A model generated the notes under the pieces. It saw only the letters and a program-made list of their open reading frames with translations. It did no database searches and was not told the origin of the DNA. Position numbers and translations under genes: made by a program. This document shows positions 4,053 through 7,068 of a stretch of DNA of 8,696 nt, in pieces (position 1 is the stretch's first letter; every line of letters begins with the position of its first letter). Source of the DNA: Octopus sinensis (lineage: Eukaryota); the NCBI RefSeq assembly GCF_006345805.1, contig NW_021828223.1:1-8696 (forward strand), in the 5' to 3' direction.

Positions 4053-4459
4053 CAGGAGTGGCTGTATGGTAAGTAGCTTGTTTACCAACCACATGATTCC
4101 GGGTTCAGTCCCACTGCGTGCACCTTGGGCAAGTGTCTTCTACTATAGTCTCGATCCGACCAAAGCCTTGTGAGTGGATTTGGTAGACGGAAACCGAAAG
4201 AAGCCCGTCGTATATATGTATATATATATTTATGTGTGTGTGTTTGTGTGTCTGTGTTTGTCCCCCTAGCATTGCTTGACAACCAATGCAGGTATGTATA
4301 TGTCCCCGTTACTTAGCGGTTCGGCAAAAGAGACCGATAGAATAAGTACTGGGCTTACAAAAGAATAAGTCCCGGGGTCGAGTTACTCGATTAAAAGGCG
4401 GTGCTCCAGCATGGCCGCAGTCAAATGACTGAAACAAGTAAAAGAGTAAAAGAGTAAAA
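4053..4459 (+). mobile_element. Near full-length tRNA-derived SINE, family A (CORE-like domain, octopus OR-type)
   Basis: A-box-like TGGCTGTATGG, B-box-like GGTTCAGTCC, CORE-like CCTTGGGCAAGTGTCTT, internal (TA)/(TG) tract and (AAGAGTAA)-type tail. A second copy lies at 5264-5690. Confidence 0.9.
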
Positions 4460-4539
4460 CACTCAAATCTCAGAATTATTATGATACTTGCTATTGCCTT
4501 GTGTCACAAATCTGTTTTATTTATTTATTTATTTATTTA

Positions 4540-4862
4540 ATATTAATAGTTATCGCCAAACTAATATGGTAGTCTATAAATATAAGACTAAAGCTGCTGC
4601 TGATTAGCTCCAAGAGGCCATCGCCTCTAGCTAGCTATATGACACACGAACCTGCGTCCATTATAACCTTCGAACAGGGGAGGGGACGGTCAGCGTTCAC
4701 CTTGCTGGTCAGACATCTGCAGACATGTTCGAAGTTTATAATGGACGCAGGTTCGTGTGTCATATAGCTAGCTAGAGGCGATGGCCTCTCGGAGCTAATC
4801 AGCGACAGCTTTAGTCTTATATTTATAGACTACCATATTAGTTTGGCGATAACTATTAATAT
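4540..4862. repeat. 137-bp inverted repeat (4540-4676 / 4726-4862) with a 49-nt spacer
   Basis: Arms align without indels. About 4 mismatches by manual comparison. Confidence 0.95.
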
Positions 4863-5010
4863 CCAGTAACGCTGCCGTAATCTCCTTTAGAGAGACTTAG
4901 TAATTTTAATATTTCTATTATTGAAAACAAGTGGATGTATTCCACTGAAATTAGGTAAATAAATCCTTCGAACAGATGGTCGGTAGCGACACCTGTTGGG
5001 TCTGACTACG

Positions 5011-5051
5011 CTGCATTGATAAAGGGCAACAACCCTGAAACATGTCTGCAG
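5011..5051 (+). ncRNA. Minimal type I hammerhead ribozyme (U3-A8 variant), predicted cleavage after GUC at 5046
   Basis: CTGCA [stem I] TTGATAA [core] AGGG-CAACAA-CCCT [stem II] GAA ACATGT [palindromic stem III] C TGCAG [stem I']. Confidence 0.78.
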
Positions 5052-5263
5052 ATGTCTGACCAGCAAGGGGAAGCGGCTGACCTCCCCTGTTCGAAGGTTA
5101 TAATGGACGCAGGTTCGTGTGTCATATAGCTAGCTAGAGGCGATGGCCTCTTGGAGCTAATCAGCGGCAGCTTTAGTCTTGTATTTATAGACTATTAACT
5201 ATTAATATCCAGTAACGCAGCCGTAATCTCCTTTAGAGAGACTTAGTAATTTTAATATTTTTA

Positions 5264-5477
5264 TTTACTCTTTTACTCTTTTACTTGCTTCAGTCATTTG
5301 AATGCCGGCCATGCTGGAGCACCGCCTTTAATCGAGCAACTCGACCCCAGGACTTATTTCTTGTAAGCCCAGTACTTATTCTATCGGTCTTTTGCCGAAC
5401 CGCTAAGTAACGGGGACATAAAACAACACCAGCATCGGTTGTCAAGCAATGCTAGGGGGACAAACACAGACACACCA

Positions 5478-5518
<41 letters not shown>

Positions 5519-5690
5519 CACATAATACGACGGGCTTCTTTCAGTTTCCGTCTACCAAATCCACTCACAAGGCATTGGTCGGCCCGAAGCTATAGCAGAA
5601 GACACTTGCCCAAGGTGCCACGCAGTGGGACTGAACCCGGAACCATGTGGTTGGTAAGCAAGCTACTTACCACACAGCCACCCCTGCGCC
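5264..5690 (-). mobile_element. Full-length tRNA-derived SINE, family A
   Basis: Minus strand starts GGCGCAGGGGTGGCTGTGTGGTAAGTAGCTTG and ends ...GTAAAAGAGTAAAAGAGTAAA. Collinear with 4053-4459 and flanked by TATTT repeats. Confidence 0.92.
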
Positions 5691-5958
5691 TATTTATTTA
5701 TTTATTTATTTATTTAGTGTTTGTGTTGATTTCTTTGTTGGACAGATAAGTGCCAGCAATTTACAGTGATAACAGAGTAAGATCAAGACGGATAGGAAGG
5801 TGGGAGATGAGATCAAATAAGGGACACGATAGGGAGACAAATACTGCCATAAACAGTCATATTTTCATTTTTTTTTTCCATTTTTTCTTTTTTCTTTTGA
5901 AGTCCTTCAACTATTCCTCGTCTCTAGTTGCTTGATTGGGTGTCCTTATAGAGTAACA

Positions 5959-6378: not shown

Positions 6379-6680
6379 AGAACACAAGTACAGAGACATA
6401 CCCACTTACATATAAACACACCACCCGATATAAACCAGTCATCTGTGTTGTAGTATATGGTGATGATGTAATTCTTTCTTTTGCCTGTAGGTATGTTTTT
6501 GGTCGGAGTACTTGTGAGAAATGTACCCCATATTAACATTGCCCAACATATTCTACCCAACTGGTCATCATGTCTCAGGTATATATACCCAGTTTATTGC
6601 AACCTCTATGATTTTTTTCCACCTAAAATTGTGAAATATATTAAAATATATTTACATGTCTTTCTACCTATGTATATATT

Positions 6681-7068
6681 TATTTATTACCCACAGGGCA
6701 CTAAACATAGAGGGGACAAACGAGGACAAAGGGTTTCAGTCGATTATATCGACACCAGTGCGTAACTGGTACTTATTTAAGCGACCCAGAAAACATGAAA
6801 GGCAAAGTCGACCTCGGCTGAGTTTGAGCTCAGAACATATTTCTTTACTGCCCACAAGGGGTTAAACACAGAGAGGACAAACAAGGACAAACAAATGGAT
6901 TAAGTCGATTACATCGACCCCAGTCCGTAACTGGTACTTATTTAATCGACCCCGAAAGAATGAAAGGCAAAGTCGACCACGGCGGAATTTGAGCTTAGAA
7001 CATAACGCTAGACGAAATACTGCTAAGCATTTCGCCCGGTGTGCTAACGATTCTGCCAGCTCGCCACC
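6681..7068 (-). mobile_element. Dimeric SINE family B insertion with a 17-bp target-site duplication
   Basis: Full monomer 7068->6838 (GGTGGCGAGCTGGCAGAATCGTTAGC...) followed by a headless second monomer 6837->6681. CTACCTATGTATATATT occurs at 6664-6680 and 7069-7085. Confidence 0.92.

Follow-up and report, generated by a model that had tools for sequence, protein, structure and literature searches.

The repeat at the centre of the window, by which we mean the whole stretch of 8,696 nucleotides that was analysed, is very probably a non-LTR retrozyme, likely mobilised by a Penelope-type enzyme. An earlier note on this DNA had assigned the repeat to such a family, and the assignment stands as far as the unit is concerned, a non-coding stretch of a few hundred nucleotides with a type I hammerhead under pairing constraint, but the copy in the window is not the complete tandem that had been supposed. 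Additional support comes from arrays of 2-7 ribozymes in a sister subfamily, from the lack of an ORF beside the unit and from its Penelope-like ends.

The copy in the window

The window is an entire small contig of a 2.7-Gb genome. Its forward strand carries a direct run of the unit at 4726..5265, in which 4726-4919 recurs at 5088-5265 with a spacing of 362 nt, as the earlier note had reported (171/194 columns, one 16-bp gap, E 1e-71); the second partial unit is the one that lacks the 16 bp. The run amounts to 1.49 units with a single hammerhead, and not to a tandem with one hammerhead per unit as had been claimed, and it stops at a fixed end, E2 (4919-4921-equivalent). Absent from the earlier description is a third piece at 4540..4729 on the reverse strand. 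This inverted, 5'-truncated copy starts at the equivalent of 5039, so that just the 3' half of the ribozyme is included, and its outer end is a second fixed end, E1 (4862-equivalent), lying against a (TTTA)n repeat at 4516..4539. Inverted and direct copies meet at 4726..4729 in a 4-nt overlap, TGTT. The same (TTTA)n repeat occurs at 5691-5716, past a repeat that flanks the insertion outside the element (5266..5686, reverse strand) and that has a separate copy in the opposite orientation at 4053-4460; this repeat is SINE-like, and it is its tail that borders the insertion. The target of the window insertion was AT-rich.

The unit is highly structured, as had been noted, with a predicted fold (as a line) that beats 100/100 shuffles (z -3.6) and with the hairpins named earlier at 4774-4789, 4813-4831, 4930-4946 and 4765-4774. 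A natural monomer from another locus (L063), folded as a circle, gives z -3.5 against 60 shuffles. The longest Met-ORF in the unit is 39 aa, in keeping with the claim that it is non-coding. Its period of 362 nt falls within the ~150-450 bp of tandem units in non-LTR retrozymes. The window copy holds one core, where an active retrozyme, by the definition in bioRxiv 10.64898/2026.07.22.740005, has at least two consecutive ribozyme units, an arrangement that is present elsewhere in the family. With one ribozyme and the 16-bp deletion, the window copy is likelier to be a dead end than to act as a source, and it is very unlikely to release a monomer. If transcribed, the inverted arms at 4540-4862 would fold into an extended duplex (92% paired) that is a likely substrate for editing or silencing.

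Several other features of the window were recorded. An exon-like stretch between AG and GT at 6491-6578 (forward strand) reads GMFLVGVLVRNVPHINIAQHILPNWSSCL and has no Pfam match; its product presumably resembles a sodium/proton exchanger, and the insertion may be intronic. A three-copy tandem of 96 nt lies at 852-1135, and another common repeat, with an internal duplication of 165 nt, occurs in both orientations at 1721-1916 and 6676-7033.

The hammerhead ribozyme

The type I hammerhead occupies 5001..5059 on the forward strand. Helix I (5011-5015/5047-5051), which continues into an internal loop and an extension, has 5 bp in the window copy and typically 6 bp; it is followed by the core at 5016-5022, a variant that reads TTGATAA (U3-A8), by the 4-bp helix II at 5023-5036, by GAAA at 5037-5040 and by the palindrome CATG at 5041-5044. 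The cut predicted by the earlier note, at 5046/5047, is correctly placed after GAAACATGTC (5037-5046). Among the Rfam matches in the window there was no hammerhead or other relevant family.

An alignment of 18 natural copies argues that this structure is maintained. RNAalifold returned helix I with its looped extension together with helix II, and once the 3-8 pair and helix III were added, 96.5% of 341 cells were paired and 17/20 pairs had changed on both sides, a count that leans on a structure predicted from the same alignment and that is of a kind inflated by kinship. The observed value was reached by 0/500 shuffles, and slid controls gave 30-50%. Positions 3 and 8 are U-A in 11 of the copies, C-G in 3, U-G in 3 and unpaired in 1, and position 7 varies freely. 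The palindrome of helix III occurs in ten spellings (CATG, CG, CGCG, CTAG, CCGG, CACGTG, CTATAG, CTCGAG, CCCGGG and CTGCAG), with exceptions that are scattered and confined to single copies. The build is that of a canonical type I hammerhead, with an active fold predicted from the covariation. As given in sections of PMC4209133, the canonical (retrozyme) build consists of a 6-bp helix I, a 4-bp helix II and a short palindromic helix III; the same sections account for cleavage as a dimer and report U3-A8 cores in Schistosoma. A reading of the ribozyme as the minimal Penelope type was dropped when the alignment revealed the canonical build. A further family of hammerhead-like motifs, with a TTGAGGA core, was seen among the loci L131, L132, L294 and L298.

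An abundant family with ribozyme arrays

The window repeat is a member of a dispersed and abundant family. A 201-nt piece of the unit gave 2099 first-look candidates, and the 30 loci taken from these were 95-100% identical. Exact patterns matched 213 times for the ribozyme, 522 times for a relaxed ribozyme and 1705 times for the tail junction, with 0 matches for the reversed-pattern controls; the last of these counts, for a single 30-mer, disposes of the possibility raised in the earlier note that the unit is single-copy. Near-identical sequence appears under four organism labels. The superfamily comprises at least five units of 360-375 nt, the window family (F1) and F2-F5, which resemble it in length and in the order of their parts at a mean column identity of 58%.

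Pieces within one locus differ by 3.2-3.6%, against 7.7% between loci, and subfamily letters are shared within a locus (132/166 for direct and 163/204 for inverted pieces), compared with 12.5% between loci. This sharing argues that each insertion derives from one template lineage.

Longer tandems, which the earlier note had proposed to look for, exist. Among twenty further loci, 12 of them chosen for close multiple hits, a sister subfamily (~82% identical) forms arrays of up to 6.85 units and up to 7 cores, mostly with the same ends; the multi-ribozyme arrays are L372-L379. An array of 5.7 units has a longest Met-ORF of 42 aa. Four of the five units in L379 lie within 0-1 substitutions of one another, and in L372 (558-3036) the units that carry seven ribozymes alternate between two types, a repeat at the level of the dimer.

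Copy ends

How the unit moves is indicated by the ends of its copies, which were analysed at 78 loci (89 chosen, 11 duplicates dropped), a set in which the window's subfamily and copies with a ribozyme are over-represented. Among the 3' ends of 130 segments, 54 lie at E1 (4862) and 57 at E2 (4921), so that 111/130 fall within windows that make up 9% of the unit. These sites are 178 and 237 nt downstream of the cut, and between them lies a 59-nt "tail" (4863..4921, forward strand). The earlier note had envisaged circular permutation of the ends, but they do not vary freely: the 3' ends recur at two sites, neither of them at the cut. In contrast, 5' ends are scattered (1/130 at the cut and 3/130 at a proposed start, 4979-4984). 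(TA)4+ follows 80/111 of the E1 and E2 ends, and a back-to-back inverted piece is present at 50/78 loci, E1 being paired with E2 in 36/50 of these. The longest run per locus has a median of 1.10 units and a maximum of 2.55, and 9/78 loci hold two cores in one run.

In published passages of PMC11167929, Penelope elements are described as having two internal start sites for reverse transcription that define a tail, with both target strands cut, and passages of PMC8557442 describe inverted 5' copies, tails and a (TA)n bias in Penelope-like elements. The copies analysed here carry all of these end traits, namely two 3' ends, a tail, 5' truncation, an inverted 5' copy and a bias toward microsatellites. 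The match between these traits and the fixed ends, tail, inversion and AT-rich targets of the unit argues that it is likely Penelope-mobilised, and we infer that E1 and E2 are start sites of reverse transcription.

The long inverted arms in the window could also suggest a fold-back DNA transposon (MITE) or a plain satellite, and the earlier note had itself allowed for a family with terminal inverted repeats. This is scarcely credible. The inversion point is different at every locus, 28/78 loci have no inverted piece at all, and fixed terminal inverted repeats were absent from the 78 loci. The outer ends of the arms are two different internal sites, and the RNA pairs covary.

Candidate Penelope partners

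Intact frames with RT and GIY-YIG domains are present in the same genome, and one such family carries a U3-A8/CATG hammerhead and has (TA)n targets. An abundant young Penelope family (L081-L092) encodes a 781-aa RT+GIY-YIG protein with a Cys-rich linker and has a second frame upstream; in L081 a U3-A8/CATG hammerhead lies ~560 nt past the stop, and this family is a candidate helper. Several further families of 780-1120-aa frames (L237-L286) have neither a Pfam match over the cut-off nor a pattern-detected hammerhead, and from their motifs we assume that they are Penelope-like.

An RT + GIY-YIG ORF is absent from the unit and from positions in register with it, and none of 93 sampled Penelope-type loci held an autonomous Penelope element with the window unit as its terminal repeat. 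GIY-YIG loci, the 781-aa family and a second Penelope-like group were each considered as sequence-linked partners and set aside, the matches being mere neighbours across (TA)n. A pair of ribozymes on contig C2, separated by 4.4 kb, was likewise rejected as a Penelope pair, since it flanks a LINE-derived parasite and not a Penelope ORF.

These results bear on whether the copies might be orphan pLTRs broken off an autonomous Penelope element, which the earlier note would have concluded had the unit always adjoined a Penelope ORF and had there been no ~360-nt RNA. The unit is not tied to such an ORF. The ends are organised like those of Penelope insertions, as this origin would predict, and the Penelope families were sampled in part (150 candidates scored out of 5029, and 138 out of 5789). 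Against it, units are linked head to tail through a single conserved junction (the 1705 matches above), the first 30 loci share no flanks beyond the unit, and the ribozyme build is canonical and not minimal. We regard an orphan-pLTR origin as improbable.

Circular or linear templates

The retrozyme reading can be put as a series of proposed steps. Arrays would be transcribed, and a U2-type promoter lying at the end of the unit before may drive this. Ribozymes would pair in twos via the helix III palindrome, and monomers would be cut out and ligated to circles. A Penelope RT-endonuclease supplied in trans would copy the unit into AT-rich DNA, nicking both target strands, with cDNA starting inside the RNA at E1 for one strand and at E2 for the other, and a short overlap would then unite the two cDNAs back to back. 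The window copy would be a truncated, 5'-inverted insertion of that kind with one ribozyme.

That circles arise from the arrays is slightly favoured. The principal alternative, which is possible though distinctly less probable, is a non-autonomous Penelope element that moves as uncut linear multimers, forms no circle and keeps its ribozyme for another step. Copies do pass the cut site intact, those of the window's subfamily are mostly about one unit long (the median of 1.10 above), and an anole Penelope used uncut RNA as its main template. A linear or dimeric source could give the alternation seen in L372, which a monomer circle leaves unexplained. However, copying from internal starts would shorten the element in every generation, and yet a period of 360-375 nt persists across families at 58% identity. 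Conservation of the palindrome points to selection for dimer cleavage, which would release monomers, and the near-identity of four of the five L379 units also counts against linear multimers.

Other observations temper the preferred reading of a Penelope-mobilised retrozyme with circular intermediates. The tail of 59 nt is longer than the 30-40 nt described, the 5' ends show no concentration at the cut or at the proposed start, and a Penelope ribozyme was dispensable for insertion in vitro. In sections of a study of frogs (bioRxiv 10.64898/2026.07.22.740005), 8/9 predicted Xenopus retrozyme dimers did not cleave and 1/9 did. This poor record of predicted dimers, together with the L372 alternation, weighs against circles. 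The unit-to-unit joint (5087-4726) was found in contigs of 3/4 sequencing runs guessed to be RNA, although a circle and a tandem give an identical joint and RNA and DNA are indistinguishable in such contigs. The contigs of the four guessed-RNA runs cover 28/28 bins, and a guessed intron at 4954-5023 was dropped because they contain no splice joint within the unit.

A promoter-like box

A conserved hairpin at 4924..4946 (forward strand) has a 5' strand resembling a box that lies at -57 to -61 of the U2 genes of this genome, and an AT-rich box at 4954-4961 (forward strand) is near this candidate snRNA-type promoter element. The U2 box, ATCAGT, was found at that distance in 27/27 U2 genes (30 loci, of which one was interrupted and two were unparsed) and in 0/25 U6 genes; the 27 U2 genes have no octamer within 400 nt. 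A tandem cluster of U6 genes (L355-L371, G000:C1) carries a TATA box and, at about -77, an octamer, and lacks the U2-type box. In 8/8 related monomers from four families, the best site for a U2 matrix falls at -53 to -57 relative to the LINE site discussed below, a weak signal that 15-91 of 500 shuffles equal. The box in the unit is also one strand of a conserved RNA hairpin. It may be a U2-type promoter of the unit, a suggestion made from sequence resemblance that we hold tentatively, at a little short of even. The box lies just past E2, so that only copies longer than one unit would hold the promoter.

A LINE and its derivative at a fixed site

The stretch at 4980..4996 (forward strand) is, in the window copy, the empty target site of a LINE and of its ORF1-only derivative, and it is duplicated in occupied copies. 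The LINE is L1/Tx1-like and a putative member of the Tx1 clade; its named homologs are 25-27% identical, and it has the ORF1 knuckle, APE-RT ORF2, target duplication and fixed target of Tx1-type target-specific LINEs. Both elements insert 29-36 nt upstream of the ribozyme core, ~55 nt behind the U2-promoter-like box, in three diverged families and with target duplications.

The derivative, which splits unit copies at this site, is 1.7 kb long and has one 445-aa ORF with a CCHC knuckle. Its protein had no match by word search or Pfam, and an Atlas lead points to CCHC/ZCCHC3-type RNA-binding clusters (0.91-0.93). The ORF is 27% identical to ORF1 of the autonomous APE-RT element (E 2e-20), with which the derivative shares the 3' ATAATAAAGA. 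Of the best 30 derivative 3' ends, 18 border the site in the window's family (from 14 loci and one duplicate), 6 do so in F3 and 2 in F2, and the other 4 are at different places. Both junctions are visible at nine loci, with a duplication of ~11-17 bp (some with mismatches), a fixed 3' junction and a variable 5' junction; an automatic finder of duplications often picked the preceding unit, so its output was set aside. Up to four tandem copies are inserted at one site, and a strict pattern finds 18 unit-derivative junctions, ~1% of family copies. The derivative was seen repeatedly at the same site (L127:1565-3286, L061 and L207-L216), and one deletion junction in the unit-derivative composite is shared by L127, L119 and L213, which argues that the composite was copied as a block. 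A contig under another organism label bridges the unit-parasite junction. In a tree of the 3' part of the half-LINE (29 rows, the duplicate L164 excluded), host labels clustered, not cleanly (4 changes for F1), and co-divergence was unsupported.

For the autonomous LINE, 28/30 3' ends lie at the equivalent site of F3-type units, one at a U2 gene and one elsewhere, some of the 30 rows being tandem or near-duplicate. A pattern-found core follows 33-35 nt on in 19 of the 28 and was recognised by eye in 3, and in 6 another inserted element comes next. A full-length LINE with an open 1140-aa ORF2 and a 17-bp duplication sits in the window's family at L381:943-6310 (G000:C1). L231 and L232 were recorded with it as full-length, and related copies stand in tandem at one site in L314-L316. 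At L310:1700-1913 the 3' end of the LINE directly adjoins the first base of a U2 gene that belongs to a U2 cluster, and the last letters of the element resemble the natural upstream flank of U2. Another element, noted among L131, L132, L294 and L298, occupies the F3-type target site.

The target letters differ between families, but TYATCGC is common to the F3-type site, the U2 site and the stray site; the simpler reading is therefore that diverged endonucleases recognise plain sequence. A more elaborate and rather unlikely possibility is a four-level nest, in which the LINE would locate its target by the transcription start of the host unit and not by a fixed DNA word. Penelope enzymes would spread a circular ribozyme RNA with its own U2-type promoter, and the LINE would be guided by tethering to the snRNA transcription complex or by pairing of read-through RNA trimmed by the host ribozyme (RNA-target pairing is discussed for SART1 and R1 in parts of PMC7265360). 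The half-LINE would ride on the LINE, and both would hitch-hike inside Penelope-made copies. Such a LINE would be parasitising a retrozyme and borrowing its promoter and ribozyme.

Comparison with known systems

Among retrozymes the family stands out by its variant cores, its measured Penelope footprint and its position-specific LINE pair. Literature searches turned up neither a retrozyme from a cephalopod nor a retrozyme-targeting LINE; supplements, Repbase and Dfam may list such families, and one supplement of PMC4209133 has no cephalopod. PMC7229834 deals with the retrozymes of coral, mussel and axolotl, for which it puts forward Penelope elements as possible mobilisers; its text mentions neither a cephalopod nor an octopus. 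As reported there, the retrozymes of coral, mussel (350-390 bp) and axolotl (330/350 bp) have, like the family described here, a short non-coding unit with a canonical type I hammerhead. Other common points, drawn from sections of PMC7229834 and bioRxiv 10.64898/2026.07.22.740005, are a weak palindromic helix III, the occurrence of both monomers and arrays, and Penelope elements in the genome. In contrast to those retrozymes, most families of the window superfamily have U3-A8, U3-G8 or U4C cores, the copies bear the full Penelope end signature, and there is a dedicated LINE parasite; circles are only predicted here.

The enzyme that moves animal retrozymes is so far a hypothesis (PMC7229834), with phylogenetic support for Penelope from frogs in parts of bioRxiv 10.64898/2026.07.22.740005, and the copies described here carry, in numbers, the footprint of two start sites that was measured in vitro for a Penelope enzyme. 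The pairing of an ORF-less retrozyme with a Penelope enzyme is directly testable using enzymes of the same genome, and the superfamily amounts to a set of natural mutants in which the hammerhead core and dimer cleavage can be studied. Like EN+ Penelope-like elements (Poseidon PAc in portions of PMC11167929, Neptune and Naiad in portions of PMC8557442), the unit has two 3' ends past the ribozyme, a tail, 5' truncation, an inverted 5' copy and a (TA)n bias. It differs from them in having no ORF, a tail of 59 nt, a canonical and not a minimal ribozyme, and no sequence-linked partner in the sampled loci. Newt satellite 2 is likewise a hammerhead repeat (~330 bp), one that cleaves as a dimer and has a reported snRNA-type promoter (parts of PMC2220036), whereas the promoter proposed here is a resemblance to the U2 genes of this genome.

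The LINE has its nearest parallels in Tx1, which inserts in Tx1D, and Keno, which inserts in U2 genes (PMC4494074); shared features are a fixed multicopy target, an ORF1 with a CCHC knuckle and an APE-RT-zinc finger ORF2. The derivative resembles half-L1 (HAL1) as an ORF1-only element that shares its 3' end with the parent LINE. Unlike the targets of Tx1-clade LINEs, the target here is a ribozyme retroelement, entered at the same position in three families with differing letters, and one copy of the LINE lies right where a U2 gene begins. A LINE that keeps one position while the letters of its target drift offers a clean system for studying how the specificity of APE-type LINEs changes.
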